DNA of 64,000 nucleotides from a virus: positions 5,779 to 69,778 of IMG/VR virus record IMGVR_UViG_3300046532_001629; one strand, 5' to 3'. The translations under genes and the position numbers were made by a program. Positions 1-64,000 of this stretch are shown in pieces; positions within the stretch are counted from its first letter, which is position 1; the number at the start of each line of letters is the position of its first letter. Under the pieces are notes generated by a model. That model was given only the letters and a program-made list of their open reading frames with translations. It searched no databases and was not told the DNA's origin.

Positions 1-426
1 GTCGGTAAACTATTTGTATTCAAGATGCAGTGTGAACTGTTCGAATACAGTGGAGAAGATTTCGATACAGACATTGGTTCTATCGATGTTATTGAGAACG
101 AACAAGCATACTCAATCGAGATGACCATGAACAGTGGTTCGGGTGCATATGTTATTAACGAACCATTAACACTATCAGGTGTTACGGTTGGTGAGGTGTC
201 TGCATGGGCCTTCTCTACAGAAACCCTAAATATAGTACATAACACTAAGACACTTGCAGTTGGAGATTCTTTGGTCGGAACGATATCAGGATGTACTAGA
301 ACGATTGCATCTATTGTAGATGTGATGACATTTGCTAATGATGGTGGCGCACAGAATAAAGACTTTGAAGATAAGGATGGGTCATACTTAGACTTTAGTG
401 AAACTAATCCATTCGGAGAACCATAA
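1..426 (+). CDS. gp14: Neck protein gp14, C-terminal part (gene begins before the window)
   Basis: Frame is open from position 1 (VGKLFVFKMQCELFEYSGE); ends with the typical LDFSETNPFG; lies directly before gp15. Confidence 0.85.
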   Translation, partial: VGKLFVFKMQCELFEYSGEDFDTDIGSIDVIENEQAYSIEMTMNSGSGAYVINEPLTLSGVTVGEVSAWAFSTETLNIVHNTKTLAVGDSLVGTISGCTRTIASIVDVMTFANDGGAQNKDFEDKDGSYLDFSETNPFGEP

Positions 427-428
427 GA

Positions 429-1481
429 ATGTTCGGTACTCATTTTTACCATGAAACGATTAAGAGAAGTGTATCTATATTTGGTACACTCTTTAATAAT
501 ATCTATATCGAGAAGAAAAAATCAGACGGAACAGTCCTTTCAAAGAGTCTAGTTCCAATTTCCTATGGCCCTAAACAGAAATGGTTAGCAAGGTTAGATG
601 ACGAGAAGAACCTAAACGATGGTAACAGAAGTGCAATCAGTCTACCGAGACTTGCCTTTGAGATCAGTGGGTTTGAATATGATGCAACAAGACAACAAAA
701 CAAATTAATAAAAACCCAAAAAAATCAGTTAGAAGCTGCAGACACAGGTAAGAGGGGATTCCAATATGCACCAGCACCCTACAACATATCCTTTTCACTA
801 GGCATTCTTGCAAAGAATGCTAATGATGCATTACAGATTCTAGAACAGATCATTCCTTACTTCCAACCCGAATACTCAGTTACAATGAAGATGGTTGATT
901 CGATGAGTGAGACCCGAGATGTGCCGATAATATTGAATAGTGTAACAATGGACGATACCTATGAAGGAGATTTCTCTGAAAGAAGAGTAATCCAGTACAA
1001 TTTAGAATTTCAAATGCAAATATACTTCTTCGGGCCAGTGTTTACTGGTGAGATAATCAAATCGGTTATTGAAAGAGACTATATTAACACAGGACTTGGT
1101 GGGTTCACAACGACACAGTTAGAAGCATCGGGACTTGTTAAAGAAGTTAAACATTACGAACCTGCGTTTGAAGAACGAACTAATAGTGTAGTGTCTGCAT
1201 CAACCACAATTGCCTTTACTACTGCAATAAATAGTAAGATAAGTGCTTTAGATGAAGTATTTGGGACTGGGAATGCAACCGAACCGACTGTTGTGAGTAT
1301 TGCTAGTGATAAACTATCGATAGTAGTCTCAAGTGCAGTAACACTAGGTGCAAAATCTAGACTGAAGTTCGTGGGTTCTGTTGACCCAATCGATACATTC
1401 GTGGTTGCAGAGACAGTGAGTTTTTATGATGACGGTGCTAAGTCTACATTCACAGAAGACAAGGTAACAGATGCGAGTTAA
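429..1481 (+). CDS. gp15: Tail sheath stabilizer / tail terminator gp15, with C-terminal extension
   Basis: MFGTHFYHETIKR, VPISYGPKQKWLARL, LPRLAFE and ALQILEQIIPYFQP motifs; synteny. Confidence 0.92.
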   Translation: MFGTHFYHETIKRSVSIFGTLFNNIYIEKKKSDGTVLSKSLVPISYGPKQKWLARLDDEKNLNDGNRSAISLPRLAFEISGFEYDATRQQNKLIKTQKNQLEAADTGKRGFQYAPAPYNISFSLGILAKNANDALQILEQIIPYFQPEYSVTMKMVDSMSETRDVPIILNSVTMDDTYEGDFSERRVIQYNLEFQMQIYFFGPVFTGEIIKSVIERDYINTGLGGFTTTQLEASGLVKEVKHYEPAFEERTNSVVSASTTIAFTTAINSKISALDEVFGTGNATEPTVVSIASDKLSIVVSSAVTLGAKSRLKFVGSVDPIDTFVVAETVSFYDDGAKSTFTEDKVTDAS

Positions 1482-1486
1482 TAATT

Positions 1487-1888
1487 ATGGCAGACAAAAT
1501 AGATAATCAGCTAAACGATATTTTAGATATCACAGGTGAGATTCAAAAAGAGACCAAAGTGGTCAAAATCCCAACAGCTTCTGAGTCTATGGAGAACGAC
1601 TATAAGTATGGTCGTGAGACCCTCTACAGTCTCGTAGAACGGGGCCAGGACGCCATTGATGGAATCCTTGACCTATGTAAGGAAACCGAACATCCTCGTG
1701 CTTACGAGGTTGCAGGACAACTTATAAAGACCGTTGGGGATACTGCAGAGAAACTACTAGACTTGCAGAAGAAAATGAAAGATTTAAGTGATGAAAATGT
1801 TAATGTGAAGACTCAACACAACCATTTATATGTTGGTTCCACTTCTGAGTTGCAGAAGTTCCTCAAAAATGAAAAGAAAAAGAACTAG
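1487..1888 (+). CDS. gp16: Terminase small subunit
   Basis: DYKYGRETLY, HPRAYEVAGQLIK and VGSTSELQKFL motifs; precedes gp17. Confidence 0.93.
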   Translation: MADKIDNQLNDILDITGEIQKETKVVKIPTASESMENDYKYGRETLYSLVERGQDAIDGILDLCKETEHPRAYEVAGQLIKTVGDTAEKLLDLQKKMKDLSDENVNVKTQHNHLYVGSTSELQKFLKNEKKKN

Positions 1889-3597: not shown

Positions 3598-5589
3598 ATG
3601 GCATTTCAAGTATCACCAGGCGTTCAAATCTCAGAGATAGATTTGACAAATGTTGTACCAGCAGTATCAAGCACAATAGGTGCTTTTGTTGGTTCATTCA
3701 GATGGGGCCCAGTTGGTGAAGTAATCACAGTTTCCGATGCAAAGGGTTTGGTAGATAATTTTTCGTCTCCTGCTAATTCAACATCAGCAGCTGAAGACTT
3801 CTATACTGCAGAATCTTTCTTAAAATATGGTTCTACACTAAGAATCGTAAGATCGGGGTCAACTGCCTCATTAATGCGTAGTGCAAACCACTCAGGTGAC
3901 GCTACTTCATTATTGAAAAATAACGAAGACTACGTAAATTCTTACAAATCGGGTGCTTTAAACGGCACAGTCGGTCAATGGGTATCAAGATATCCTGGCG
4001 TTTTGGGAAATTCAATTAAAGTTTCTCATTGTGCTAGTGCATCTGCTTACTCTTCAACTAGTGCATCAACTACTAGTGGAATCGAGGCAATTGGACAAAC
4101 AATTATTGCTGTTGTTTCAGGTGCAGCTTTCCAAGTCGGAGATGTTATAACCTTCGCTGGACAGACACAAGAATACAAAGTAACAGGTATTGCTAGCAAC
4201 GATCTAACCGTTAAGTCATTAGGTCAACCAGCAAATACTGGTATAGTCACTGAAGTTGCAAGTGGAACTGCGATCAATAGAAAATGGGAACACCATTCAC
4301 TATTCAACAAAGCTCCAGGCATTTCAAGTGGTGCAGCCCTCGCTGGTGCAACTGCTGATGAAATTCATATCGTAGTTATAGACGAAGATGGTGCTTTCAC
4401 AGGAGCCGCTGGAACAGTACTAGAATCATTTGGATTCTCTTCAATGGCTTCGGATGCAAAAACACCTGAAGGTAGTTCACTCTACTATAAAGATGTAATT
4501 GCTACACAGTCAAAATACGTATACTGGTCAGGACACAACACTGCAACAGATTTAACCGCTGCAGAAGATAGAACACTTGCAACTTCCGTTGCAGACCCCT
4601 TTACAGGGCCGACAGCACCATGGGCAATATCATTAACTGGTGGTGTAGATGGAAGTATCAGTACTGCTGGTCAAAAACACGGTGACTGGACAACTCATTT
4701 CGGGGATGCAGAAACAATCGACATCTCATTCTTAATCGTAGGTTCCACAAGAACTTGGAGTGGGTCTGCAGAACAAGATACACGTGCAGATTGGACAACA
4801 CTTGCTAATCAAGCAATTCTTCTTGCAGAAGCAAGAAAAGATTGCATGGTTATCTTATCACCTAGATATTCAGATGTCGTTGGTGTTTCAAGTGAGTCAA
4901 CTCAATCATCCAATGTTAAATTAACTGCCGATACAGCAACTTCAAGTTCTTATGCAGTAATTGACAGTGGTTGGGTATACCAGTACGATAGATTCCACGA
5001 TACATACAGATGGGTTCCTGCAAACGGACACACTGCTGGTATTATGGCAAGATCAGACCTTACTAGAGATTCATGGGTTTCACCTGCTGGATTCTCAAGA
5101 GGACAATACTTAGGTATCACTAAACTTGCTTTCAATCCGAAACAAGCATCTAGAGATGACCTATACAGAGCCAGAGTTAACCCAGTGGTTACCTTCCCAG
5201 GCCAAGGTACATTGTTGTACGGTGACAAAACTGCATTAAGTTCTCCATCAGCATTTGATAGGATTAATGTCAGAAGATTATTCATAGTATTAGAGAAAGC
5301 AATAGCAGTTGCTGCTAAAGCACAATTGTTCGAATTTAACGATGCTTTCACAAGAGCTCAGTTTAGAAGTGCAATTGAACCTTTCCTAAGAGATGTTAAA
5401 AACAGAAGAGGTTTAGTAGATTATTCAGTAATATGTGACGACACTAACAACACAGACTCCGTTATCGATAGAAACGAGTTCGTATGTTCAATTTTTGTCA
5501 AACCTGCTCGATCTATTAACTTCATTACATTGAACTTTGTCGCTGCCAGAAGTGGTGTCGAGTTTTCTGAAATTTATAGTGCAGTTTAA
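3598..5589 (+). CDS. gp18: Tail sheath protein
   Basis: MAFQVSPGVQISEIDLT, FRWGP, SPAGFSRG and FDRINVRRLF motifs. Confidence 0.97.
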   Translation: MAFQVSPGVQISEIDLTNVVPAVSSTIGAFVGSFRWGPVGEVITVSDAKGLVDNFSSPANSTSAAEDFYTAESFLKYGSTLRIVRSGSTASLMRSANHSGDATSLLKNNEDYVNSYKSGALNGTVGQWVSRYPGVLGNSIKVSHCASASAYSSTSASTTSGIEAIGQTIIAVVSGAAFQVGDVITFAGQTQEYKVTGIASNDLTVKSLGQPANTGIVTEVASGTAINRKWEHHSLFNKAPGISSGAALAGATADEIHIVVIDEDGAFTGAAGTVLESFGFSSMASDAKTPEGSSLYYKDVIATQSKYVYWSGHNTATDLTAAEDRTLATSVADPFTGPTAPWAISLTGGVDGSISTAGQKHGDWTTHFGDAETIDISFLIVGSTRTWSGSAEQDTRADWTTLANQAILLAEARKDCMVILSPRYSDVVGVSSESTQSSNVKLTADTATSSSYAVIDSGWVYQYDRFHDTYRWVPANGHTAGIMARSDLTRDSWVSPAGFSRGQYLGITKLAFNPKQASRDDLYRARVNPVVTFPGQGTLLYGDKTALSSPSAFDRINVRRLFIVLEKAIAVAAKAQLFEFNDAFTRAQFRSAIEPFLRDVKNRRGLVDYSVICDDTNNTDSVIDRNEFVCSIFVKPARSINFITLNFVAARSGVEFSEIYSAV

Positions 5590-10222: not shown

Positions 10223-11536
10223 ATGTTTTTATCAGAAAACTTACAAGAAAAGTGGTCACCGATTCTAGAACACTCCGATCTTCCAAAGATCGAAGATAAC
10301 TACAAACGTGCTGTAACTGCTGTTATTCTTGAAAACCAAGAAAAGGCTCTTAATGAAGATAGAGTTAACCTTGGTGAGGCAGCACCTTTAAATGCTACTG
10401 GTAGTGCGATTTCTAACTGGGATCCGATTTTGATCTCATTAGTTCGTAGAGCTATGCCAAATCTCGTTGCTTACGACATTTGCGGTGTTCAACCAATGAC
10501 TGGGCCTACTGGTCTTATCTTTGCTATGAAAGCAAGATATAATGACTACATGACTCAATCTGCTATATTATCTAAAACAGAAGCTATGGGTGTCAACGAA
10601 GTTGATACTGAATTCTCATCAACTGCATCACCTGAAAGTGGTAAAGCTGGTGTTAATGTTCAAATCTCAGACCCTTTTGATACTTCAAGTCCTTCGTATG
10701 AAGATACGACTGGTACTGGTATGACTACAGCTCAGGCTGAAGCATTAGGTGATGCAACTGCAAACGGTTTTGCTTCAATGGCATTCTCTATCGAGAAAGC
10801 TACTGTTACTGCAAAGTCAAGAGCATTGAAAGCAGAATACACACTAGAATTAGCACAAGACCTTAAAGCAATCCACGGTCTTGATGCGGAATCAGAACTT
10901 GCAAATATTCTTTCATCAGAAATTCTTGCGGAAATCAACAGAGAAGTTGTTAGAACAGTAAACTCACAAGCCAAACTCGGTGCAGCCGATACAGCTAGTG
11001 CAGGTACTTTCAACCTTGACGTAGATGCAAACGGAAGATGGTCTGTTGAGAAATTTAAAGGTCTATTGTTCCAAATCGAAAGAGAGTCTAACAAAATTGC
11101 TAAAGAAACAAGAAGAGGAAAAGGTAACTTTATTATCTGTTCATCTGATGTTGCTTCTGCACTTTCAATGGCTGGTGTATTAGATTACGCTCCTGCTCTT
11201 TCTACTAACCTTAACGTTGACGATACTGGTAATACTTTTGCTGGTCTTCTAAACGGACGTGTTAAAGTTTATATCGACCCATATGCTGGTGTTGATTACT
11301 TGACAGTTGGTTACAGAGGTTCAAACCCTTATGATGCTGGCTTATTCTACTGCCCATACGTTCCATTACAAATGGTTCGTGCAGTTGGTGAGAACACATT
11401 CCAACCAAAAATCGGTTTCAAAACTAGATATGGTATGGTAACAAATCCATTCGTAGGTGCTACACCTTCTGACGGACTTGCTACTGCTGGAACTAACCAG
11501 TATTACAGAAAATTTGCAGTGTCAAACATTCTGTAA
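10223..11536 (+). CDS. gp23: Major capsid protein
   Basis: LVRRAMPNLVAYDICGVQPMTGPTGLIFAM, KSRALKAEYT and FQPKIGFKTRYG. Confidence 0.98.
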   Translation: MFLSENLQEKWSPILEHSDLPKIEDNYKRAVTAVILENQEKALNEDRVNLGEAAPLNATGSAISNWDPILISLVRRAMPNLVAYDICGVQPMTGPTGLIFAMKARYNDYMTQSAILSKTEAMGVNEVDTEFSSTASPESGKAGVNVQISDPFDTSSPSYEDTTGTGMTTAQAEALGDATANGFASMAFSIEKATVTAKSRALKAEYTLELAQDLKAIHGLDAESELANILSSEILAEINREVVRTVNSQAKLGAADTASAGTFNLDVDANGRWSVEKFKGLLFQIERESNKIAKETRRGKGNFIICSSDVASALSMAGVLDYAPALSTNLNVDDTGNTFAGLLNGRVKVYIDPYAGVDYLTVGYRGSNPYDAGLFYCPYVPLQMVRAVGENTFQPKIGFKTRYGMVTNPFVGATPSDGLATAGTNQYYRKFAVSNIL

Positions 11537-13768: not shown

Positions 13769-14452
13769 ATGATATTAGAAAATTATATTTGGACTGCACC
13801 TTCATTCTTCACAAAGGAAGAGGTTGCTCAAATCCATGTTGCATCTGAAAAGTTGCCGTTGAAAAATTCAATGATTGGACAGACCAATCGTACCCAAGAC
13901 TCTGAAGAGTCGTCTTCAGAGGGTAAGACAGACCATTCTATTAGACAGGGTGGTAACAAGTGGTTCATCAATGAAGAAAATCATATGCCGGCACACCTCA
14001 ATGAGAAGATGGCAGCTGCACTTAATCAGGCAAACATGGATTCACGATGGAATCACACCATTGAGTATCAAGAAAATCCTCAGTACACTATTTACAATGC
14101 ACCCAAAGAAAAAAAAGGTGGTGACTTCTATACATGGCATACAGATGCCGGGCCGATACACTACGATAATGGAATGCACAGAAAGTTATCAATGACTATT
14201 CAGTTATCAGAGCCAGATGATTATGAGGGTGGACACTTTCAGTGGTTAGAACCTCATAGACAATTTGATCGTCTAAAGCAAACAGACAACACAATCAATA
14301 TTGAAAACAGTATTCAAACAGTCCCATTCTCTGCCAGAGAGATAGGAAGTGTCATTGTATTTCCATCATTCTTATATCACCAAGTAACACCTGTACTATC
14401 AGGCTGTAGAAAATCCTTGGTAGTTTGGTATGTTGGAAAACCCTATGTCTAA
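13769..14452 (+). CDS. 2OG-Fe(II) oxygenase (prolyl-hydroxylase-like)
   Basis: YTWHTD, RKLSMTIQLS, YEGG, FPSFLYHQVTPV and RKSLVVW. Confidence 0.9.
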   Translation: MILENYIWTAPSFFTKEEVAQIHVASEKLPLKNSMIGQTNRTQDSEESSSEGKTDHSIRQGGNKWFINEENHMPAHLNEKMAAALNQANMDSRWNHTIEYQENPQYTIYNAPKEKKGGDFYTWHTDAGPIHYDNGMHRKLSMTIQLSEPDDYEGGHFQWLEPHRQFDRLKQTDNTINIENSIQTVPFSAREIGSVIVFPSFLYHQVTPVLSGCRKSLVVWYVGKPYV

Positions 14453-21857: not shown

Positions 21858-22487
21858 ATGTACGAATTGATTCAGGAGGCCTCAAAGGTCTTAAGAACAC
21901 CACCACTGGTGTTAGATTTCGAAAACCCATCACACGACCCAAAGGACGTGGAAGTAAAACTTGGAGAGGCAATGACCAAATTTGGTGGCCTCGGTTTGAG
22001 TGCAAACCAAGTGGGGTTAGATGTTAGATGTTTTGTAATGAGAACTGCAGACGCAGGAATCCAGTGTTTCTTCAATCCTGAAATCACCAAAGTATCACAA
22101 GAGACAGACCTACTTAAAGAAGGGTGTCTATCTTTCCCTGATATATACCTCATGATAAAACGATCAAGAGTCGTTGAAATGAAGTATCAGGATTCGGATG
22201 GAGAAGAACATTTTCTCATGTTAGAAAATATTGGAGCAAGATGTGCTCAACATGAAATTGATCATTTAAACGGAATCGTGTTTTTACAACGTGCTTCCAA
22301 ATTGAAACTAGATCGTGCATTAAAGTCGCGACCAAAAGAAAAAGCGAAACGATTAGAATATGAAAAAAGAGCAGCCGTCGCAAAGTACATCCAGTCCGTT
22401 CAATCTGCTAAAGATTCCGAACCTCGTGAGTCAGCAGGAACAACAGGCACTAGTACACTACCACAAGACGCATCACCACAAACGTAG
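21858..22487 (+). CDS. def: Peptide deformylase
   Basis: GLGLSANQVG, EGCLS and HEIDHLNG motifs. Confidence 0.95.
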   Translation: MYELIQEASKVLRTPPLVLDFENPSHDPKDVEVKLGEAMTKFGGLGLSANQVGLDVRCFVMRTADAGIQCFFNPEITKVSQETDLLKEGCLSFPDIYLMIKRSRVVEMKYQDSDGEEHFLMLENIGARCAQHEIDHLNGIVFLQRASKLKLDRALKSRPKEKAKRLEYEKRAAVAKYIQSVQSAKDSEPRESAGTTGTSTLPQDASPQT

Positions 22488-32840: not shown

Positions 32841-32842
32841 AA

Positions 32843-35544: not shown

Positions 35545-35553
35545 GAGATATTA

Positions 35554-35700: not shown

Positions 35701-35704
35701 ACAC

Positions 35705-36636: not shown

Positions 36637-36651
36637 ACCCTAAATAACTAT

Positions 36652-37083: not shown

Positions 37084-37100
37084 TTCAGAGGTGACAACTA

Positions 37101-39249: not shown

Positions 39250-39318
39250 TCTTTTAAAACTTATCTGTTATACTGTCTAAATACTATTGTAATGCCCATT
39301 TGGGGTTACATAATATAA

Positions 39319-39335
39319 CTTGCTTAATTAAGGAG
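39319..39335 (+). promoter_or_regulatory. ROSE-like RNA thermometer hairpin over the hsp20 SD
   Basis: CUU-G-CUU pairs with AAGGAG with a bulged G; contains UUGCU. Confidence 0.65.
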
Positions 39336-39341
39336 AAAACT

Positions 39342-39785: not shown

Positions 39786-39854
39786 GAAACCCTCTTGGTG
39801 ATACCTCTATTGTATTGTATAATAGAGGTATCTTATATATTATGGAGAAGATAA

Positions 39855-40379: not shown

Positions 40380-40422
40380 AAACCACTAGTCACAATGTGC
40401 TAAATATAGTATAATGGAGACT

Positions 40423-41703
40423 ATGATGAAAGATAATCCGAACAAGTATTTTCAATACCACTTAGAAGACCTTCACCGCAACAGTGCAAAAAAGGAGTTT
40501 AATTACATTACTTTCTTTGCTGGTGGTGGAGGTTCTTCATGTGGTTATAAACTCGCAGGTGGTGACGTTCGTTATATGAACGAGTTCCAACAACTACACG
40601 TTGACACTTACCTAGAAAACTTCCCTAACACTACCCATGAATGCAGAGACATCAAAGAAGTCACTGCAGAAGGAATCATGGAACTCAGTGGACTCAAAAA
40701 ATACGAATTAGATATCATGGATGGGTCACCACCTTGTCCACCATTTTCTATGGCAGGTTCCAAGAAAGAAGGTTGGAACAAAGAGAAGATGGCTTATGGT
40801 ATGAAACAACAGAACATTGAAGACCTTACATGGGAAATGATTAGGATTGCCGAAGGGTTAATGCCTAAAGTTATAATATGTGAGAACGTGAAAGGTCTCT
40901 CAATGGACTATGCAAGAGACCATCTAAACAGGATGGTAAACGACTTTGAGAAACTTGGATACTCAGTTACTTGGAAAGTCATGAAGGGTCATCAGCACGG
41001 TGTACCTCAGAAGAGAGAAAGAGTATTCATGGTTGGTGTACGTGATGATGTACTAGAAGGTATCGGTATGCCTTGGATGTGTATGTCTTCCGTCTTCCCC
41101 GACCCAGTAAAAGAATTTGCATCCATTGAAGATGCAATCCATGATTTAGAAACAGATGAACAAAATATTATAGATGCAGCTTATCTAGAAAATGCAATGA
41201 ATGAATCATCAAAAGGTCATTGGGTAAATGGATTCGATGTACACCCAAAAGAAGAACTTGCACATTGCACTCCTTGTAAAGGAATTGCAGGAATAGAGGA
41301 TAAAGAAAATCTTTCCTATGTTTCTATAGGTGATCATATCGTTGGCCCTTGGTTTGAAGAGAATGCAAAACTTGGTAATATTGCAGAAGAAGATGTAAAA
41401 CATTCTTACTACATGTCAAGAATCGTACCTAAACATCTTGCAGCCCATTCATTAACTGAATCGGGTTGTCAACCAAAATTTATGGGTGGTAATCATTTTC
41501 ATCACAATGGAAAACGAATCTACACACCTAAAGAGATGGTAAGGTTAATGACTTTACCTAATGACTATAAAATGACTGGAGACTATGACGACAAGGGAGC
41601 AAGAATCGGATTGATGGTTGCACCACTTTGTATGTATCGTCTAGTCGAGGAAGTCAAACAACAGATATTGGAACCATGGAATATACAACAACAACAGACT
41701 TAG
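40423..41703 (+). CDS. DNA (cytosine-5)-methyltransferase
   Basis: FAGGGG (motif I), GSPPC (IV), ENV (VI) and QKRERVF (VIII). Confidence 0.94.
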   Translation: MMKDNPNKYFQYHLEDLHRNSAKKEFNYITFFAGGGGSSCGYKLAGGDVRYMNEFQQLHVDTYLENFPNTTHECRDIKEVTAEGIMELSGLKKYELDIMDGSPPCPPFSMAGSKKEGWNKEKMAYGMKQQNIEDLTWEMIRIAEGLMPKVIICENVKGLSMDYARDHLNRMVNDFEKLGYSVTWKVMKGHQHGVPQKRERVFMVGVRDDVLEGIGMPWMCMSSVFPDPVKEFASIEDAIHDLETDEQNIIDAAYLENAMNESSKGHWVNGFDVHPKEELAHCTPCKGIAGIEDKENLSYVSIGDHIVGPWFEENAKLGNIAEEDVKHSYYMSRIVPKHLAAHSLTESGCQPKFMGGNHFHHNGKRIYTPKEMVRLMTLPNDYKMTGDYDDKGARIGLMVAPLCMYRLVEEVKQQILEPWNIQQQQT

Positions 41704-42677
41704 GATTTAAAGACACATTCAAAAAATGGAATGGTAAGTATCTTACAGAAGATTCTTACGATACTGTTATATCATCTATTGAATACGATGGTGATGTTAT
41801 CAAAATCTATAAACCTCATGGTACACTCATGGGTAAAACATTACTTGCATGTATCGTAAAGAAAGCATACAAGGGTAAAGTATATCAAACAGTTAAAGAC
41901 ACTCTGTTCTCAATAGATGACACATCTACAATGAGAGCAAACGCTGCAGGCCCCATTGATCACGATGCCATGAAAGCAAAAGGATTAATCGAAGGTAAAG
42001 ATTATGTCCTTAGAACACCTAACAGTTATTACCCTCTAAAGAAGAACGGTGAGTTCAATCGTATTGCAGAAGCAAATGAGATTCATTCTGTATTGATCGG
42101 TTATAAAAGAGGAAGGTTCACTGGTATGATCAAAGCTAGTGGATGGATGCAAAAGAAATCTAATGCAAAAAAATTAGAAGCATTATCACAGATTGCAAAT
42201 GTCAATGAGGAAGCATTGAAAAATGCAGTTCCCGAAGTATACAACTTACAAAAAACCTTTGCAGACAATTGTATAGACAAGAAGTATCACATTGGTGGTT
42301 CACCGATGACAGCCTTATCTGCAAACAAGTACTCCACAGGTGGGACAACAAAGATGTCTGCTCACTTGGATGGTAAAGATTTAGAATTCGGTATGACTAC
42401 AATGTGTGTATTCCGTATCGGAGAATTCGATGGTGCATACTTATGTTTCCCTAGATATGGTATTGCTATTGAAGCAGATGATGGAGACGTACTGATTGCA
42501 GATTCAAATGAATTGCATGGTGTAACACCTATCACTGGTGAAGGAGTGCGACTATCATGTGTTGCGTACTGTGACGAACATGTTGCAACTATGGGTGAAG
42601 CAGGTAAAACTGAGAAACCTATCGGCCCCCATGCAGGAAACTATGAAGAGAAGGGTACACTAGGAGATTTTTTATGA
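41676..42677 (+). CDS. TET/JBP-family 2OG-Fe(II) dioxygenase (5mC oxidase candidate)
   Basis: AHLDGKD (HxD), GDVLIADSNELHGVTPI (distal H) and RLSCVAY (R); overlaps the C5-MTase. Confidence 0.85.
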   Translation: MEYTTTTDLGFKDTFKKWNGKYLTEDSYDTVISSIEYDGDVIKIYKPHGTLMGKTLLACIVKKAYKGKVYQTVKDTLFSIDDTSTMRANAAGPIDHDAMKAKGLIEGKDYVLRTPNSYYPLKKNGEFNRIAEANEIHSVLIGYKRGRFTGMIKASGWMQKKSNAKKLEALSQIANVNEEALKNAVPEVYNLQKTFADNCIDKKYHIGGSPMTALSANKYSTGGTTKMSAHLDGKDLEFGMTTMCVFRIGEFDGAYLCFPRYGIAIEADDGDVLIADSNELHGVTPITGEGVRLSCVAYCDEHVATMGEAGKTEKPIGPHAGNYEEKGTLGDFL

Positions 42678-43378
42678 AAATAGTTATTACAGGTTCAAGA
42701 GGTTTTATAGGAAAATATCTACGAAGTGCTTTAGATAAACATAATATTGTAGAATGGGATACTAAAATAGGTAAAGACATAAAAGATTTTTATTTAGATG
42801 GTGATGAAGATTTTGTTATTCATCTTGCTGGTCTAATCTCACCAAGAGATTCTATTAACGAACCACACGATTACTGGTTGCAAAATGTAGAATACAGTAA
42901 AAAAATATTTGATACATGTAAAGATGTTCCAATGGTTTATGCTTCTAGTGCAGCTGCAAAAGAATATTGGAGAAGTCCATATGGAACAACTAAAAAAGTT
43001 TTAGAAACACTTGCACATAAAGGTCATGTTGGATTAAGATTTGAAAGCATCTATGGTGATGGTGCCTCAGATATAGGATTAATAACTAGAATCAAAAATG
43101 GAACTATTAAGTACCATACAAACCATATAAGAGACTTTATTCATATAGATGATATTATAGGTGCTATCTTATTGTTTATCATGCAAGGAACACGAGATGC
43201 ACTACCATATTATGAAGTTGGAACTGGTAAAGAACATTTAGTTTCAGATGTAGTAAAACATTTCGGAGTAGATGTTCCCGAAAAAGAAGGGGATGATATT
43301 GAAATATTTCGTAGTATTGCAGATATAACAGAAATGAAAAAGTTAGGATGGAAAGCAATGAGGAGTGTGTATGATTGA
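42674..43378 (+). CDS. NAD-dependent nucleotide-sugar epimerase/dehydratase
   Basis: ITGSRGFIG, IHLAG, YASSAA, YGTTK and RDFIHIDD. Confidence 0.92.
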   Translation: MKIVITGSRGFIGKYLRSALDKHNIVEWDTKIGKDIKDFYLDGDEDFVIHLAGLISPRDSINEPHDYWLQNVEYSKKIFDTCKDVPMVYASSAAAKEYWRSPYGTTKKVLETLAHKGHVGLRFESIYGDGASDIGLITRIKNGTIKYHTNHIRDFIHIDDIIGAILLFIMQGTRDALPYYEVGTGKEHLVSDVVKHFGVDVPEKEGDDIEIFRSIADITEMKKLGWKAMRSVYD

Positions 43379-44189
43379 TTTAGTTATTTGTACATATAAA
43401 AGATTGGATAAACAGACCACTCTTGGAAACATTCCAAAAAAGTTTAGAGATAACGTAACTTTAGTTGTTCAACCCCAAGAGGAAGCTGAAGCACGAAAAG
43501 TTCATCCAAATATATTTGTTCTTGATGGTGATAACATTGGTTATGCAAGAACTATCGAACAAACAACAAAAGAGTTTGCAGTTAATCGTAATAATCACTT
43601 TTGGTTGTTTGATGATGATTTAAGGTTTGTATATAATGAAGAAACAGAGTATCAAGTAACAGGCAAGAAACACACGTTTACAGAGCAACATTTTGAACAA
43701 ATGTTAATAGATATTGAAAAAGAATTAGATTCTGGCTTGATGCATGGTGCATTAGGAACCACTTGGAATTTCCCTTGGGGAAAACTTCCATACATTGAAA
43801 ATAGTAGAATGTCGGGAAACAAAGTATACAATAAAAACCTTGCAAAAATATGGAACGATATTGACTGGGTTGGATGTTGTGGTGCAGAAGATTTCTATGT
43901 AAATCTGCAATTGTTAACTACAGGACATGCAAACAAAGTATGGCATAATTATGTTGTTGACCCCGGCCCGAGTTATCAAGATGGTGGTTGTTCTGAGTAT
44001 AGAGATGTAGAATTCCATAATAAATCATGTGAAGACCTACAAAAATTATTCCCTGAGTTTGTTAAACTTAGAACCAAAAAAACATTGTCAGGGCCTTGGA
44101 AGAACCTAGACAGACTAGGAGCATCTGTGCAATGGAAAAAAGCATATTTGTCTTCTCAAGTGGCAACAATAAAGGATTTCATGTCATAA
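43371..44189 (+). CDS. GT-A fold glycosyltransferase (TET-associated/GREB1-like)
   Basis: VICTYKR, LVVQPQE, FDDDL, AED..NLQLL and GGCSEYR. Confidence 0.8.
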   Translation: MIDLVICTYKRLDKQTTLGNIPKKFRDNVTLVVQPQEEAEARKVHPNIFVLDGDNIGYARTIEQTTKEFAVNRNNHFWLFDDDLRFVYNEETEYQVTGKKHTFTEQHFEQMLIDIEKELDSGLMHGALGTTWNFPWGKLPYIENSRMSGNKVYNKNLAKIWNDIDWVGCCGAEDFYVNLQLLTTGHANKVWHNYVVDPGPSYQDGGCSEYRDVEFHNKSCEDLQKLFPEFVKLRTKKTLSGPWKNLDRLGASVQWKKAYLSSQVATIKDFMS

Positions 44190-44887
44190 TGAAACCGAGA
44201 TATACAAATATAGTTAATCCTCTAATGGGTCACACAGGTAACGTGATATACAGGACTGTTATAAATGGGATGCTGATTAAGGTTAAAGAAACCCCAACAT
44301 CGATTTCATTACATTATGGTGAAGGTGCAATAACTCAAGCATCAATCCTAAAGAACTACCCCGAAAGATTACAATATGATTATGCAAGACATTTAGTACA
44401 AGTGGTAAACCACGTTGAATCACCGTCACGAGCATTAGTACTTGGATTAGGTGGTGGAGTCATACCAACATGGTTACATCAAAACACTAAGTGTCAAATT
44501 GATGTGGTGGATATCATACCCGACTTAAAGGACATTGCAGAAAAGTATTTTAAAATGCCCTCAGACAATCGAATCAAGGTGATCACCGAAGATGCATACC
44601 ATTTTGTACAAGACACATTGCTAACAGGGATATATGACATCATAATTGTAGATGTTTGTGATGATACACGGATAGAGAACAAATTCATTTCACCTAAATT
44701 CTATGAAGGGTTGAAGAGTATTCTAACACCTAAAGGTCGTGTTGCAATTAATTATTTTGTAGCACCACAAACATATGACGACTACATGATTGGGCTTAAA
44801 GATGCCTTCACAAATGTCGTTGAACAGTATAAAAATTTGGAGGGTGGTAAAAACCATATCACAATTTGTAATGACAACACTATTTGA
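44189..44887 (+). CDS. Spermidine-synthase-like SAM-dependent transferase
   Basis: LVLGLGGG, VVDI, DA and YDIIIVD motifs; LTPKGRVAIN. Confidence 0.8.
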   Translation: MKPRYTNIVNPLMGHTGNVIYRTVINGMLIKVKETPTSISLHYGEGAITQASILKNYPERLQYDYARHLVQVVNHVESPSRALVLGLGGGVIPTWLHQNTKCQIDVVDIIPDLKDIAEKYFKMPSDNRIKVITEDAYHFVQDTLLTGIYDIIIVDVCDDTRIENKFISPKFYEGLKSILTPKGRVAINYFVAPQTYDDYMIGLKDAFTNVVEQYKNLEGGKNHITICNDNTI

Positions 44888-45194
44888 AGATAATGTCTAC
44901 ATGGTTGTAGAGAACCTACACCAGTCTGACGCAGCGATTGAACTTACTGGTGGTGAATGGGACGGACTCGTATACCAATACGGAAAGGTCGGGTTCGAAA
45001 ATGGCAAACCCAACATAAATTTTGAAAGAACTATAAGAAGATTACCACATAATGTCGAAAAGACCGAAGAGGAACTTAAGAAACACCTAAATAATGTTGA
45101 ACTAAAAACACTCATGGGTGACATTCTAGTAGAAGTCATGCAAGCACAAATAAGGAAAGATAATGAACAAAGAAGTACTAAAGGAACAGATTAA
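44871..45194 (+). CDS. Conserved T4-like hypothetical protein
   Basis: AIELTGGEWDGLVYQYGKV...MGDILVE; overlaps both neighbours. Confidence 0.65.
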   Translation: MTTLFEDNVYMVVENLHQSDAAIELTGGEWDGLVYQYGKVGFENGKPNINFERTIRRLPHNVEKTEEELKKHLNNVELKTLMGDILVEVMQAQIRKDNEQRSTKGTD

Positions 45195-45615
45195 GAGACA
45201 CGAAGGTGAAGTCCTCGAAGTGTATGCAGATTCACTAGGATATTTAACACTAGGTGTTGGGCATCTTATTAAAGAAGGTGACGATGAACATGGTCAAGAC
45301 GCTGGAACTCCAGTCAGTCAAGACATTGTAGATTCGTATTACGATACAGACTTTGACAAACACGTTAATGAAGCAATTCATGTGTTTGGAGATGAGGATG
45401 CATTCTACCTTTTACCCGAAGATATTCAACACGTGTTAGTAAACATGACATTCAATCTTGGTGCAACTCGTTTGGGCTACTTTAAAGGAATGTTGAAAGC
45501 ATGTAGAGTCCATGACTGGAAAGAAATGGCAGTAGAGATGGAAGATTCCAAATGGTATGGACAGGTCGGAAGACGTTCGAAAGAACTCCAAGACATGGTT
45601 CTTGCCTGTGGATAA
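45163..45615 (+). CDS. Lysozyme / endolysin (GH24, T4-lysozyme-like)
   Basis: HEG...YADSLGYLTLGVGH (E/D/T triad), NMTFNLG and DSKWYGQVGRR. Confidence 0.92.
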   Translation: MNKEVLKEQIKRHEGEVLEVYADSLGYLTLGVGHLIKEGDDEHGQDAGTPVSQDIVDSYYDTDFDKHVNEAIHVFGDEDAFYLLPEDIQHVLVNMTFNLGATRLGYFKGMLKACRVHDWKEMAVEMEDSKWYGQVGRRSKELQDMVLACG

Positions 45616-45877
45616 CATTTTTGCACTAAGACTTCTTGGTGGAGAAACTATTTTAGGTAGGGTAACCACATCACGATTTAGTAGTAAAACAGTCATCGCA
45701 GAACCACAACTTTGTATTGTGGAAGTCACTGATGGTAAAATGGAAATCAGTCTTGCACCGTGGAATCCATGGGCAAGAGAGTACAGATTCGAAATCAACA
45801 ATAGAAACATCGTTACAATGTTTAAGGTTCGACCCAATTTAGAACAGAATTACAAAGTAGCGACAGGAAACAAATAG
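45608..45877 (+). CDS. Hypothetical Sm-like protein (start uncertain)
   Basis: ALRLLGGETILG...LAPW pattern. Confidence 0.6.
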   Translation: MDNIFALRLLGGETILGRVTTSRFSSKTVIAEPQLCIVEVTDGKMEISLAPWNPWAREYRFEINNRNIVTMFKVRPNLEQNYKVATGNK

Positions 45878-45887
45878 GAAATATATT

Positions 45888-46121
45888 ATGGACAAAACAC
45901 GATTACTCAAAGCACTACAATCCCAGTACCAAGGACAAATGGACATTGCACTTGCAAACATTGAAGTGTACATTCACAACCCAGCTGGTATCGGAGAACA
46001 CCCCGATCTTGCAGCTGCCCTCGACACTCAAATTGAAGCCCTCACATCAGCCAGTGAAAAACATGATACGGTTTCCGACTTAATAAAAGATCAAATTCAA
46101 ACAAAAACACTTGTAGGATAG
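45888..46121 (+). CDS. Conserved hypothetical protein
   Basis: ANIEVYIHNPAGIGEHPD; SD AGGA. Confidence 0.75.
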   Translation: MDKTRLLKALQSQYQGQMDIALANIEVYIHNPAGIGEHPDLAAALDTQIEALTSASEKHDTVSDLIKDQIQTKTLVG

Positions 46122-46145
46122 ACCACTTTCTGTTATAATACCAGT

Positions 46146-48659
46146 ATGGATTTCTATACTAATGTATGTCGCACAAGAGACAAAATTCTTGTAAAGGGTT
46201 ATCAGAACGGTAAGCAGGTCAAACAGACTGTTGCTTACCGTCCTAATCACTACGTCCCATCCACCAAGGGTGAGACTGCATTCCGTTCACTTGACGGCAG
46301 ACCTCTTGAGGCAGTAAACCTCAGTTCGATGGGTGGTGCAAGAAAGTTTCGTGAATCGTATCAAGGTACTGTTGGATTTGAAATCCACGGCTACGACAGA
46401 TACATTTACACCTACATTGCTGACCAGTTCCGTGGTGATATCAAGTGGGACTTTAAGACAGTTAAAATTGCAACACTCGACATTGAGTGTGAATCAGAGA
46501 ATGGGTTTCCCGAACCAACTCTTGCAATGGAGAAGGTCAATGCAATCACAATCAAACCATTTCGTTTCATGGCACATACCTTTGGTATCGGCCCTTGGGA
46601 TGAGAAACCAGCCAATGTAACTTATCATGAATGTGTTGACGAAGCACAACTGTTAACTGAATTTATCAAGTACTGGAGAAAGCAGTCCTTCGATATTATT
46701 ACTGGTTGGAATGTAGATTCATTTGATATTACATATCTGTGTAATCGTGTCGATAGGTTATTCGGTGAAGGAGAACACAAGAAGTTCTCTCCATGGAATC
46801 AAGTAGATGTCAGAGAATACAAAACCAACTTTGGTAACACTCAACAGAAGTTTACACTGTACGGTGTTAATGTTGTTGACTACATGGACTTGTATAAGAA
46901 GAGAACTTTCGTCAACCAAGAATCCTATGCACTGAATCACATTGCCCACATGGAGTTGGGTAAGAAGAAATTGGATTACTCAGAACACGGTTCATTACAC
47001 GGATTGTATAAAAACGACTATTCAAAGTTCCTTGCATATAATGTACAGGATGTTGTTCTTGTTGAAGACCTAGAAGATAAACTTGGTCTACTAGAATTGA
47101 CCATGACCATGTCTTACAATGCTAAGTGTAACTACAATGATACATTTGGAATGGTAAAATACTGGGAAACTATTATCTACAACTTCCTCAAAGAACAGGG
47201 AATTCAAACCCCACCACAGTCTCTAGGACAACGCAAGACACATCAAATCGTTGGTGCATATGTAAAGGAACCACTGGTTGGTAAACACGATTGGGTTATG
47301 TCGTTTGACTTGAACTCACTCTATCCCCATTTGATTATGCAGTATAACATATCACCCGAGACCATGATGAAGAATGGTCTTATGGATGTTGATGTCCAAA
47401 AGATTCTAGATGGTAAGGCAGACTTATCCAGTCTAAAGAAACTAAATTTAACAGTTGCACCCAATGGTGTAAAATTCAAAAGAGACAAACAGGGTTTCCT
47501 ACCCGAGCTCATGGAGAAGTTCTACCAAGAACGTAAAGAGTGGAAAGGTAAGATGATTTCTTATCAAAAGGAACAGGAAGTTTGTACTGATTCAAAACGA
47601 AAGAATGAACTTGATGGTCTAATCAAACGAGCATACAACAATCAACAGGTCAGAAAGATTGCACTTAACTCTGCTTATGGTGCATTAGCAAATCAATACT
47701 TTGCATTCTTCGACCCAAACCTTGCAGAAGCAATTACCATGTCGGGTCAGTTAGTCATTAAGACTGCAGAGATCACTATCAACGATTGGATGAACAAGGT
47801 ACTGAAGACTACAGACCAAGATTATGTTATCGCAATGGACACGGACTCAGTATACATCACTTTTGATAAACTAGTGCAACAAGTGTTTCCTGCTGATACA
47901 CCTAAGAATAAGATCGTAGACTTCCTTGACACCGTTGCCAACGAGAAGATTGAAGGTGTTCTTGCAAAGGGGTATGATGAACTTGCAGATTACACTAACG
48001 CATTCCAACAGAAGATGGAAATGGGTAGAGAGGCTATTGCAGATCGTGGAATATGGACTGCAAAGAAAAGATACATCCTTAATGTTTATGACATGGAAGG
48101 AGTTAGACTTCACGAACCTAAACTGAAGATGATGGGTATTGAGACAGCAAAGTCCAGTACACCCCAGTGGATTCGTAAAAAGTTGACCGATGCACTTAAG
48201 TTGGTCATGAATGGAACAGAACAAGATGTATGGGATTTCGTAGAGAATGCTCGTAGAGACTTTAGAGACCTTCCAGTTGAAAAGGTTGCATCACCTAGAG
48301 GTTGCAACAACCTACAACAGTACTCAGACAGGTCAATGATCTATAGTAAGGGTACACCTATCCATGTACGAGGTGCATTACTATACAACCACTACCTCGA
48401 AAAGAAGAACATTGACAAGAGATATAACCTTATTCGGAGTGGAGATAAGATTCTGTTTGTGTATCTTAAGCTCCCAAACAAATTTAACGAGAATGTAATA
48501 TCCTTCTCTAATGTTCTACCTAAAGAATTTGAACTACAGGACTACATCAATTACGATATGCAATTCGATAAGGCATTTATTGAACCACTTAAAGCAATAA
48601 TTGAATTGATCGGTTGGAATGTTGAACCAGTTGCATCATTGGACAGTTTCTTCGGGTAA
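46146..48659 (+). CDS. gp43: DNA polymerase family B
   Basis: LDIEC, FDITY, SFDLNSLYPH, KIALNSAYG, DTDS and KKRY. Confidence 0.98.
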   Translation: MDFYTNVCRTRDKILVKGYQNGKQVKQTVAYRPNHYVPSTKGETAFRSLDGRPLEAVNLSSMGGARKFRESYQGTVGFEIHGYDRYIYTYIADQFRGDIKWDFKTVKIATLDIECESENGFPEPTLAMEKVNAITIKPFRFMAHTFGIGPWDEKPANVTYHECVDEAQLLTEFIKYWRKQSFDIITGWNVDSFDITYLCNRVDRLFGEGEHKKFSPWNQVDVREYKTNFGNTQQKFTLYGVNVVDYMDLYKKRTFVNQESYALNHIAHMELGKKKLDYSEHGSLHGLYKNDYSKFLAYNVQDVVLVEDLEDKLGLLELTMTMSYNAKCNYNDTFGMVKYWETIIYNFLKEQGIQTPPQSLGQRKTHQIVGAYVKEPLVGKHDWVMSFDLNSLYPHLIMQYNISPETMMKNGLMDVDVQKILDGKADLSSLKKLNLTVAPNGVKFKRDKQGFLPELMEKFYQERKEWKGKMISYQKEQEVCTDSKRKNELDGLIKRAYNNQQVRKIALNSAYGALANQYFAFFDPNLAEAITMSGQLVIKTAEITINDWMNKVLKTTDQDYVIAMDTDSVYITFDKLVQQVFPADTPKNKIVDFLDTVANEKIEGVLAKGYDELADYTNAFQQKMEMGREAIADRGIWTAKKRYILNVYDMEGVRLHEPKLKMMGIETAKSSTPQWIRKKLTDALKLVMNGTEQDVWDFVENARRDFRDLPVEKVASPRGCNNLQQYSDRSMIYSKGTPIHVRGALLYNHYLEKKNIDKRYNLIRSGDKILFVYLKLPNKFNENVISFSNVLPKEFELQDYINYDMQFDKAFIEPLKAIIELIGWNVEPVASLDSFFG

Positions 48660-61453: not shown

Positions 61454-61457
61454 GAAT

Positions 61458-62273: not shown

Positions 62274-62278
62274 AACAT

Positions 62279-62354: not shown

Positions 62355-62393
62355 TTTCTTAACTTAGAGGTTTAAAACAACCTAAATAACTAT

Positions 62394-62957
62394 ATGTCCC
62401 GAATCATTGATACACTTATAGTCTTCCGAACACTCAAGATGCTCACTACCAAGTGGACAGATTTTGATGCATATAAATTGGGCATCATAGATAAGAAGGG
62501 TGCAAGACTTTATGATAGAGAGGTAGAGACTTCAGAAGATAAACAGTCCTACACCTTACTACATAGACTAGTGTTCAACCTAAAACGAATCATACAAAAG
62601 GTTCCATTCGGAAAATCTGCATTTGCATCCTATGCCATTGCATTGTTGTTACTGAAAGAAGAGACTAAGATAAACGAAGATCAGATGGAAGAGTTGTGTG
62701 AGAAGTTCTACAGACACCTCAAAGACAATGATCTAGTATTCATGGAACAACTAACTGAAGCTGCAGATGTCCCCTCAGTAGAAACTAACAAGACATATAG
62801 ACTTCGAAGACCCCTAAAAGAACAAAACGAAACTGTCTATCCCGAGAAAATGCTTATAAATATACATGAGGAACATTCTAATATATTTGGAATGCTCGTA
62901 TACATAGGATATATCGGAGAAGATAGGGTACTGGTGACTGGCGATGACATATACTAA
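62394..62957 (+). CDS. Conserved T4-like late hypothetical protein
   Basis: AYKLGIIDKKG, HRLVFNLKRI and SYAIALLLLKE. Confidence 0.8.
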   Translation: MSRIIDTLIVFRTLKMLTTKWTDFDAYKLGIIDKKGARLYDREVETSEDKQSYTLLHRLVFNLKRIIQKVPFGKSAFASYAIALLLLKEETKINEDQMEELCEKFYRHLKDNDLVFMEQLTEAADVPSVETNKTYRLRRPLKEQNETVYPEKMLINIHEEHSNIFGMLVYIGYIGEDRVLVTGDDIY

Positions 62958-63126
62958 AAAACAACAAATCTATGCAAATCTCAAGATGTGGGAAGATGCA
63001 CCTATGAACGCAACAGGTAGTGCGACATCTACCCATGAGCCTATTGTCAAGAAGAAGAAGAAAGGGAAGGACGTTTACGAACCTTCTCAGATTTTCGACT
63101 TGATCAAAAGAAACTCTAACGTATAA
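62944..63126 (+). CDS. Small protein with EDAPMNATG motif
   Basis: Overlapping ORF; WEDAPMNATG echoes gp23 EAAPLNATG. Confidence 0.6.
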   Translation: MTYTKKQQIYANLKMWEDAPMNATGSATSTHEPIVKKKKKGKDVYEPSQIFDLIKRNSNV

Positions 63127-63129
63127 TTT

Positions 63130-63954
63130 ATGAACTTTTTGAATTACCTGGCCCTGGCCACCTCAATCTCAATTGCATTTATAGCTGCATATTTCTCAGT
63201 TATTGGTCTTGCAACCATATTTGCAGGAGCATACATAGAAGTGGTTGTCATGACAGGGGTACTAGAGTTCGGTAAACTCGTAACGGCTGCATACTTACAC
63301 TTGTTTTGGGATAAGATCAAGTGGCAGAAGTGGTATCTAGTTACTAGTGTTGTAGTGTTAATGTTAATTACATCATTGGGTATCTTTGGATTCCTATCAA
63401 AAGCAAACATCGAACAGACACTACAGGGTGACTCATTCTCACTAGAGTTATCAATCATAGAGAAACGAATTTCAAGTGAGGAGAGTAAACTAGAACGTCT
63501 AGAGAATAGACTGATCGGCCTCGACACTATCATCAACACTGCACAACCCAAAGACCGTAACTACATTGATCGTAGACAAAAGGAAGAAAGGGGGTTGATA
63601 GCAATCGACATGGATGGTATAATAGATCAAGTGGTTAAATACAATGAAGAGATGATGCCACTCAAAAGGGAACAACTCATGCAAGAAGGTGAGATCGGCC
63701 CCATTAAATATGTTGCAGAGGTAATCTATGGACAAGATAGAGCAACCGAGTACCTCGACAACGCAGTAAGGTGGGTGATATTTGCACTTATCTTTGTATT
63801 CGACCCTCTTGCAGTTCTACTACTGATAACCAGTGTAGGTCTTATAGGGACTAGAAAAGAAGAGATAGAAGATAAGAAACCACCTGTTATTGAACAAAGA
63901 TATGTTCTGCAAGTCCCTAAAAGTCGTGTTAGAAACATGGAAGAACCTAAATAA
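63130..63954 (+). CDS. Multi-pass membrane protein with coiled coil
   Basis: AAYFSVIGL, LEFGKLV, ITSLGIFGFLSKA, GPIKYVAE and VFDPLAVLL. Confidence 0.8.
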   Translation: MNFLNYLALATSISIAFIAAYFSVIGLATIFAGAYIEVVVMTGVLEFGKLVTAAYLHLFWDKIKWQKWYLVTSVVVLMLITSLGIFGFLSKANIEQTLQGDSFSLELSIIEKRISSEESKLERLENRLIGLDTIINTAQPKDRNYIDRRQKEERGLIAIDMDGIIDQVVKYNEEMMPLKREQLMQEGEIGPIKYVAEVIYGQDRATEYLDNAVRWVIFALIFVFDPLAVLLLITSVGLIGTRKEEIEDKKPPVIEQRYVLQVPKSRVRNMEEPK

Positions 63955-64000
63955 TAAGTAATTTTATAAACCCCAATTGGAGAACAAAATGGCAGACGGA

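Follow-up and report, generated by a model that had tools for sequence, protein, structure and literature searches.

About ten short restriction-type motifs are nearly absent, unless a GpC dinucleotide overlaps them, from a 64,000-nucleotide stretch of phage DNA (the window), which comprises bases 5779-69778 of a single virus contig of 69,778 bases (IMG/VR record IMGVR_UViG_3300046532_001629). The window also encodes a candidate DNA modification cassette, in which a predicted C5 cytosine methyltransferase is followed by a TET-type dioxygenase, a sugar-nucleotide epimerase, a glycosyltransferase and an aminopropyltransferase-like protein. Judged from motif counts and gene content, it is probable that this cassette marks cytosines in GpC context, visible in the footprint as GCC, that the mark blocks overlapping endonuclease sites, and that selection has purged or relocated the other sites. 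The contig is estimated to be about 39% complete; the G+C content of the window is 38.4%, and its + strand carries most of the called genes.

Conditional avoidance of restriction-type motifs

Motifs were counted on both strands, and a site was scored as overlapped, or protected, if any GpC shared at least one base with it. Expectations came from two null models. In the first, synonymous codons were permuted across the whole 69,778-base contig; in the second, third positions were permuted only between codons that agreed in amino acid, in their first two bases and in the base that follows, which preserves the proteins, the codon usage and every dinucleotide count (300 shuffles for the window-only run). 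The first null, applied to the whole contig, gave the same picture as the second on the window, and the expectations quoted below for the window are those of the second.

GGWCC, a motif that no GpC can overlap, does not occur in the window, against 38.6 expected sites (standard deviation 4.2). CCWGG is likewise missing without overlap (0 against 28.4), and its overlapped sites number 21 against 7.6 expected; for CCGG the corresponding counts are 0 against 23.3 and 4 against 6.9, and for CCAGA 0 against 78.7 and 16 against 10.3. Across the four motifs, then, 0 unprotected sites stand against roughly 169 expected. The initial annotation had noticed by eye that GGWCC is avoided and that the other three motifs occur only beside a GpC, and the full count bears this out without an unprotected motif near its expectation: all 21 CCWGG sites are GCCWGG and/or CCWGGC, all four CCGG sites are GCCGG or CCGGC, and all 16 copies of CCAGA/TCTGG (15 CCAGA and one TCTGG in a plain count of the window) are GCCAGA/TCTGGC. 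Its example positions (1032, GGGCCA; 3704, GGGGCC; 2299, 3616, 13987, 14147, 21401, 43963, 5545 and 43731) are also correct. G precedes 476 of the 4601 CC dinucleotides in the window (10.3%), and the chance that 16 of 16 CCAGA sites would be G-flanked is p ~1.7e-16; for 21 of 21 CCWGG sites, with either flank allowed, it is p ~1.4e-15. Enzymes of such specificities are known, including AvaII-type (GGWCC), EcoRII-type (CCWGG) and HpaII/MspI-type (CCGG) endonucleases.

When all 4- to 6-mers were ranked, further avoided motifs emerged beyond those first named: GGATC (3 against 57.6), AGATCT (0 against 16.0), GGTACC (0 against 9.4), CGWCG (0 against 24.9 without overlap, 1 against 5.6 with it), ACGGG/CCCGT (1 against 28.5 and 3 against 4.6) and CCTCC/GGAGG (9 against 43.1 and 7 against 4.4). 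Weaker zero counts were found for GTCGAC, GACGTC and CTCGAG. Motifs with a built-in GCC are enriched, GGCC at 60 against 46.6 and GGSCC at 38 against 15.9. The pattern is therefore that words which can never touch a GpC are gone, words beginning with CC survive only as GCC, and words that always include GCC are enriched. A scan of all 4- and 5-mers with each of the four 5' flanking bases, in which a hit had to be almost entirely lost with three of the flanks and kept with the remaining one, returned G before CCAGA, G before CCCGT and T before CGGGA on the contig; the last arises because the depletions of ACGGG, CCGG and GCG add up.

Two other explanations for parts of the pattern were rejected. 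Host methylation of GGCC as the protector does not fit the 16 surviving CCAGA sites, which are mostly preceded as TGCC, AGCC or CGCC and not as GGCC. Avoidance of Shine-Dalgarno sequences as the whole cause of the CCTCC/GGAGG loss does not fit the persistence of GCCTCC at expectation, both here (7 against 5.6) and in the cultured phage Melnitz (13 against 11.1).

A candidate modification cassette

The predicted C5 cytosine DNA methyltransferase (40414-41703, + strand, 429 amino acids) matches Pfam PF00145 over profile positions 1-323 of 324 (E 6.2e-49), and its translation contains FAGGG, SPPC (as GSPPCPPFS), ENV and QKRER motifs. Its 3' end is overlapped by the open reading frame (ORF) of a TET/JBP-type 2OG-Fe(II) (2-oxoglutarate- and iron-dependent) dioxygenase (41628-42677, + strand; PF12851, Tet_JBP, E 1.2e-13; HLD at residue 246), whose real start is likely the ATG at 41676; a comparison of this protein with PDB sequences gave no match. 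On the same strand follow an NAD-dependent sugar-nucleotide epimerase/dehydratase-like protein (42674-43378; PF01370, E 2.4e-16), a TET-associated glycosyltransferase (TAGT; 43365-44189; PF20691, E 4.3e-11) and a spermidine-synthase-like, or polyamine aminopropyltransferase-like, protein (44096-44887; PF01564, E 1.1e-09). A redoxin gene precedes the cassette, and lysozyme and polymerase genes come after it. The window thus holds the features of a phage C5-methyltransferase/TET/glycosyltransferase cluster, namely a methyltransferase with its motifs, an adjacent TET, and a glycosyltransferase with an epimerase. With its catalytic motifs present the cassette looks intact, and the methyltransferase is presumed to be the writer of the GpC-context mark. 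A search of the contig, about 39% complete, for a PF01555 methyltransferase gave no match.

The best PDB match of the methyltransferase is 8yf3 (E 7.5e-68), which is SpCmoX of Synechococcus phage S-B43. SpCmoX is a C5-carboxymethyltransferase that requires a GC motif, as judged by nanopore sequencing of native phage DNA and by in vitro assays; it carries an SPPC motif, its Arg350 binds the carboxymethyl group, and its product blocks HhaI (PMC12783734). The window enzyme shares the SPPC motif, but in a HMMER alignment to 8yf3 Arg350 falls opposite Leu400 (IGLMVAP in place of VGRMVPP). The two also differ in their neighbours: SpCmoX transfers carboxymethyl and has CmoA and CmoY-type ligase neighbours, S-B43 encoding both CmoA- and asparagine-synthase-type genes, whereas the window enzyme adjoins a TET, and a Pfam scan of ten ORFs at 37101-48659 recovered no CmoA-like or asparagine-synthase-like domain. 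Because Leu replaces Arg350 and a TET adjoins, we read the window enzyme as a methyltransferase and not as a CmoX.

The footprint in cultured phages

The cultured Methylophilales phage Melnitz, which infects OM43 (strain H5P1), encodes counterparts of the window's methyltransferase and TET, both at 52% identity, and the footprint recurs in the 115 kb of its genome over which motifs were counted. GGWCC, where overlap is impossible, is absent against 54.2 expected sites. Without overlap, CCWGG (0 against 55.2), CCGG (0 against 19.0), ACGGG (0 against 33.8), CCTCC (3 against 72.7) and CCTGA (6 against 114) are all depleted; the overlapped forms persist, at 54 against 20.6, 14 against 12.8, 12 against 7.6, 13 against 11.1 and 18 against 14, respectively. 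A search of the complete genome of Melnitz with PF00145, PF01555 and PF02086 matched just one gene, the one adjacent to the TET. The part of the Melnitz paper that bears on this gene says that the methylase might protect DNA and goes no further, and it also mentions a host gene for a type II DNA methylase (PMC9004378).

Pelagibacter phage HTVC008M, which infects SAR11, has neither a TET nor a C5-methyltransferase match, nor any match to the three methyltransferase profiles, and it lacks the footprint: GGWCC is at expectation (43 against 43.1), as is CCWGG both without overlap (67 against 61.0) and with it (14 against 17.3). It does show a flank rule of a different kind (loci L082, L085 and L086), in which GATC is found only as GGATC; GGATCA occurs 28 times against 24.4, and the other three flanks 0 times against 66.8. 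GGACTC is likewise retained in this genome (HGACTC 0 against 20), and TCGA (2 against 52), GATGC (18 against 134) and CACTG (3 against 72 and 4 against 30, low in both overlap classes) are avoided as well.

In S-B43 (L166-L168; record positions 40001-160000), whose cytosine modification in GC context has been demonstrated by experiment, CCGG is the only strongly avoided word, with 0 unprotected sites against 37.1 and 4 overlapped against 14.6. All four survivors are CCGGC/GCCGG.

Codon and dipeptide usage

The footprint reaches into protein-coding choices. Pro-Gly has no synonymous escape, because any proline codon before GG yields CCWGG or CCGG, and in the contig all 21 Pro-Gly pairs are overlapped by GpC, 16 of them through the glycine codon GGC (103 of 1378 glycine codons) and the rest through a preceding G. 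At Gly-Pro junctions, GGC or GGG is used in 24 of 24 cases in + strand ORFs of the contig, as the initial annotation had proposed from about 25 junctions, and in 25 of 25 on both strands; these two codons make up 225 of the 1378 glycine codons on the + strand. Melnitz behaves alike (Pro-Gly overlapped in 56 of 56, Gly-Pro with GGC/GGG in 41 of 41), and HTVC008M (12 of 72 and 0 of 30) and S-B43 (11 of 112 and 4 of 71) do not.

Two further codon preferences had been suggested. For Pro-Glu, said to be often CCC-GAA, the + strand ORFs of the contig contain CCC 35 times, CCT 17 times and CCA 4 times among 56 pairs. For Ser-Gly, the implied avoidance of TCT is evident (1 of 109), but TCG (21) is not the usual substitute; the commonest codon is AGT (58).

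Amino acid usage itself is also bent. Pro-Gly pairs occur at about half the frequency predicted from amino acid composition in the contig (21 against 44.6) and in Melnitz (56 against 96.0), and are not reduced in HTVC008M (72 against 75.1) or S-B43 (112 against 103.4). In the halving of Pro-Gly, site avoidance shows a cost at the level of the proteins. All four genomes have few Gly-Pro pairs, and hence the scarcity of these is not specific to the footprint.

GpC context of the surviving sites

Every rescued motif begins with CC, and the evidence is therefore for GCC and not for every GpC. G-flanked CGWCG shows no rescue in a GCG context (1 against 6.4 here, 0 against 9.5 in Melnitz), and CGCG, which presents GCG on both strands, is itself depleted (1 against 7.9 and 0 against 28.4). 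GTGCAC, with a GCA context, offers weak evidence (0 against 5.4 here). No strongly avoided motif starting with CT or CA was found in any genome examined, so that GCT and GCA are without an informative motif. Protection of the M.CviPI type, in all GCN contexts, is contradicted by the CGWCG and CGCG counts, if such a mark blocks the cutters. GpC accounts for 13.5% of cytosines and GCC for 1.9%.

The initial annotation had linked site survival to a modified cytosine in GpC, on the background that phage C5-methyltransferase/TET pairs act in that context. This background has been published: most of the C5-methyltransferases that accompany a TET in phages target GpC[C/T], and some clades accept G or any base (PMC8256090). 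The GCC context seen here appears to fit that published preference. The link between survival and GpC is supported, with the footprint, the cassette, the relatives and Melnitz behind it, but protection in every GpC is not, and the idea narrows to GCC.

Relatives with and without the cassette

An IMG/VR scan recovered 86 contigs encoding relatives; 80 were kept, at 56-100% identity, and the 35 loci of at least 12 kb among them, with methyltransferase and TET, were analysed. GGWCC, unprotected CCWGG and unprotected CCGG are each at zero in 34 of the 35. Pooled over all 35, near-duplicates included, GGWCC occurs 2 times against 296.1 expected, and CCWGG 3 times against 157.3 unprotected and 73 times against 47.0 overlapped. 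One locus, L006, is exceptional, with 15 of its 16 unprotected forbidden sites within the first 4 kb, upstream of Hsp20; the near-identical L007 has one. This suggests that L006:1-4000 was joined on chimerically or acquired recently. Avoidance of CCAGA is seen in 23 loci and missing from 11, and that of GGATC, CCTCC and ACGGG is also clade-dependent. Such variation between clades is what would be expected from differing nuclease pressures.

Relatives without the cassette were found through the polymerase, with the cassette scored by tblastn, and 23 loci span Hsp20, lysozyme and polymerase with no methyltransferase or TET there. The footprint is kept in 16 of these and absent from seven. In the 16, overlapped CCWGG is enriched (for example 9 against 2, 8 against 2 and 8 against 1), and L092 combines 0 unprotected sites against 8 with 9 overlapped against 2. 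Their slot contents vary. Some encode a protein of 463-508 amino acids that weakly matches N6_N4_Mtase and has cytosine-N4 methyltransferases, by their labels, as its language-model neighbours, which is a lead only; others hold a phrog_19197 protein with a cytidylyltransferase, a glycosyltransferase-like protein and a TAGT; and others carry GTP cyclohydrolase I with radical-SAM modules. In the seven loci that lack the footprint, the slot is empty or has a phrog_19197-type protein only, L158 adding a cytidylyltransferase-like protein and one unassigned protein. A quick IQ-TREE polymerase tree shows the module types interspersed and places the seven in a single clade (SH-aLRT 94). No C5-methyltransferase was found elsewhere in the records of five of the 16 footprint loci and five of the seven footprint-less ones, but these ten records are only 7-33% complete (12-33% for the five with the footprint), so that a C5-methyltransferase and TET could lie elsewhere and the search decides nothing.

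Across the relatives at loci L091-L161, the slot corresponding to window positions 39300-46146, between Hsp20/redoxin and lysozyme/gp43, is occupied by interchangeable candidate DNA modification modules, the methyltransferase/TET pair being one of them. Either the various modules write one common address, or GCC is protected by some other factor that these phages share. A tentative reading, which we consider possible though doubtful, is that cytosine-modifying modules of differing chemistry are exchanged at this slot and all write a conserved GCC address, the surviving sites, once moved onto that address, locking the lineage in. If this were true, the chemistry would be interchangeable, and sequence alone would reveal both the modification context and the restriction repertoire that a phage has faced.

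A proposed mechanism and its alternatives

The sequence of events we favour would run as follows. After replication, the C5-methyltransferase (40414-41703) would methylate the cytosine that follows G, in the context GCC and not GCG; the TET would oxidise 5-methylcytosine to 5-hydroxymethylcytosine; the epimerase and TAGT would attach a sugar, probably of the HexNAc (N-acetylhexosamine) type; and the aminopropyltransferase-like enzyme may make a further addition. The modified outer C of GCC-NNN, with its opposite-strand partner just outside the site, would then block overlapping endonuclease sites. At 13.5% of cytosines in GpC and 1.9% in GCC, most sites are beyond chemical protection, and selection would remove targeted motifs that lack a GCC overlap, shifting copies required by the proteins into a protected form (Pro-Gly as CCN-GGC or preceded by G, Gly-Pro as GGC/GGG-CC). 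We infer that the cutters are host restriction enzymes and that this cassette supplies the mark, its chemistry and its blocking effect being predicted from gene content and from the distribution of sites.

Several observations weigh against this proposal. Protected CCGG sites in the window do not exceed expectation, and rescue is absent for CGWCG and CGCG. TET69, from the published contig 69, whose gene order is that of the cassette, hydroxylated minimally when paired with its own methyltransferase in E. coli, for which the authors suggest inefficient methylation by that methyltransferase (PMC8256090). The rule for G before GATCA in HTVC008M, a phage without a methyltransferase of the three families, indicates that flank rules can arise without a known phage enzyme. 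The 16 cassette-less loci that keep the footprint imply that protection may come from elsewhere as well as from the cassette, or even instead of from it. Further, the footprint-less loci form one clade, so that the association of no module with no footprint rests on about two contrasts, Melnitz against HTVC008M included.

The 16 of 23 relatives without methyltransferase or TET in the slot speak for an alternative in which the GCC mark is real but has another writer, either a phage enzyme encoded in the missing 60% or so of the genome or an orphan methyltransferase of the host, and the cassette is an add-on with another role. The partial state of the contig, about 39% complete, would allow for this, as would the type II DNA methylase of the Melnitz host (PMC9004378). 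We nevertheless think another writer unlikely. The complete genome of Melnitz has no DNA methyltransferase of the three families searched other than the one beside the TET; the predicted context agrees with the published preference of the enzyme class (PMC8256090); the same GCC rule holds across phages with different avoided-motif sets, and so probably with different hosts; and the cassette-less relatives hold an N4-cytosine-methyltransferase-like gene or glycosyltransferase modules in the slot. It is also conceivable, though decidedly improbable, that modification proceeds as we propose but that the nucleases are encoded by the phage lineage itself, degrading host DNA and sparing their own as T4 does, and that host restriction plays no part. 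Avoidance of GGWCC, CCWGG and CCGG is conserved at methyltransferase identities of 67-89%, and in Melnitz at 52%, which is easier to attribute to a lineage-borne factor than to every host sharing the same enzymes; the cultured relatives, moreover, infect SAR11 and OM43, the genomes of the latter being called highly streamlined in the abstract of the Melnitz paper. Yet avoidance of CCAGA, GGATC, CCTCC, ACGGG and GATC varies between clades, as under host-specific pressure, ten specificities would require many nucleases, and no candidate site-specific nuclease turned up, though no systematic search was made.

The least probable explanation, to which we give very little credence, dispenses with modification altogether and makes the flank rule a by-product of longer avoided words, codon-pair bias or mutation bias. 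The hit for T before CGGGA is just such a by-product, HTVC008M has its rule for G before GATCA with no known methyltransferase, and GpC and CpG are somewhat depleted in the contig, GCG strongly. Set against this, one and the same flank base is common to five to seven unrelated motifs in two genomes, the nulls preserve codon usage and dinucleotides, amino acid usage is bent to the point of halving Pro-Gly, and zeros against expectations of 24-86 are beyond a mild mutation bias.

Relation to known systems

In classical phage restriction-site avoidance, short palindromes are depleted, and where a phage carries an orphan methyltransferase it is presumed to protect the remaining sites. The likeness here is that motifs lie far below codon-aware expectation, with a phage methyltransferase as the presumed protector of the sites that are left. 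The difference is that one flanking base decides, that the two strategies are interlocked site by site, and that non-palindromic words and dipeptide usage are affected. A sugar at C5 of cytosine as an anti-restriction shield is familiar from T4. In T4, however, the replacement extends to every cytosine and precedes replication; here no more than 13.5% (GpC), and perhaps only 2-5% (GCC or GCY), would be modified, after replication, with purging doing the rest. A search of the full-text literature for a prior description of conditional, flank-dependent site avoidance found none.

The gene set of the cassette matches that of contig 69, a subclass II cluster with epimerase and glycosyltransferase, which Burke et al. 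(2021; PMC8256090) describe as C5-methyltransferase, TET, epimerase, glycosyltransferase and polyamine aminopropyltransferase; redoxin and DNA polymerase are among the coloured genes in the legend to Fig. 2 of that paper, a legend that does not specify the contig. In E. coli, the contig 69 epimerase and glycosyltransferase GT69 made mono- and di-HexNAc-methylcytosine, and the aminopropyltransferase is reported there to have given no product (PMC8256090; bioRxiv 10.1101/2023.12.21.572611). The cluster type and its GpC preference are thus already published; those papers describe enzymes, and the genome-wide signature is new. A 2023 preprint considered GpC-limited modification unlikely to give broad protection from host endonucleases (bioRxiv 10.1101/2023.12.21.572611), and the footprint argues the opposite. 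The discoverers of these clusters left the purpose of GpC-limited modification open, and the footprint offers an answer from natural genomes: sparse modification, together with selection that moves or deletes vulnerable sites, could shield a whole genome. It also offers a sequence-only route to the target context of a phage enzyme (here GCC and not GCG) and a list of the nuclease specificities that abundant marine phages, difficult as they are to culture, have to face. A cultured test system exists in Melnitz on OM43 strain H5P1.

Surviving sites, phage identity and composition

The surviving sites can be placed as follows, all on the + strand. CCAGA persists as GCCAGA at 5545-5550, one of 15 on this strand, and the sole + strand TCTGG is TCTGGC at 43731-43736. 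A surviving CCWGG, one of the 21, is GCCTGG at 2299-2304. CCGG has both flanks at 13987-13992 (GCCGGC), and its remaining three copies are at 14148, 21402 and 43963. The only CGWCG of the window also has both flanks (GCGTCGC, 22375-22381). GGATCC at 10420-10425 and GGATC at 36355 are the last occurrences of GGATC/GATCC, a motif that GpC cannot overlap. The one ACGGG without GpC overlap, at 1639-1643, is an exception to the rule.

The window represents about 40% of a T4-like marine myophage that groups with HTVC008M and Melnitz. The gp43-type DNA polymerase of the contig shares 48% identity with its counterparts in marine T4-like cyanophages, and its curli/FecR/CHASE2-cyclase, Hsp20 and polymerase genes match annotated genes of Melnitz and HTVC008M. 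At 31803-39249, a CHASE2/cyclase ORF and a curli/FecR cluster correspond to CsgF, CsgG, curlin, FecR and cyclase in Melnitz; HTVC008M has counterparts of the CHASE2/cyclase ORF and the curli cluster, without an annotated FecR. It is through this curli/FecR/cyclase correspondence with both phages that the contig is assigned to their group. A near-identity DNA search with the cassette against cultured phages gave no match. DNA near-identical to window positions 38000-47999 occurs in public marine or seawater runs, 18 of them from 14 studies (2018-2025), all as contigs and each with at least 71% of the sampled words of this 10-kb stretch. The phage is therefore widespread.

In overall composition, GpC stands at 0.87 and CpG at 0.85 of codon-shuffle expectation in the contig, GCG/CGC at 0.44 and TGCA at 1.61. 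Since CpG is as depleted as GpC, we draw no conclusion on 5-methylcytosine deamination as a cause of the GpC depletion. GCAGCA/TGCTGC occurs 9 times in the contig against 39-42 expected, though GCAGC is at expectation.

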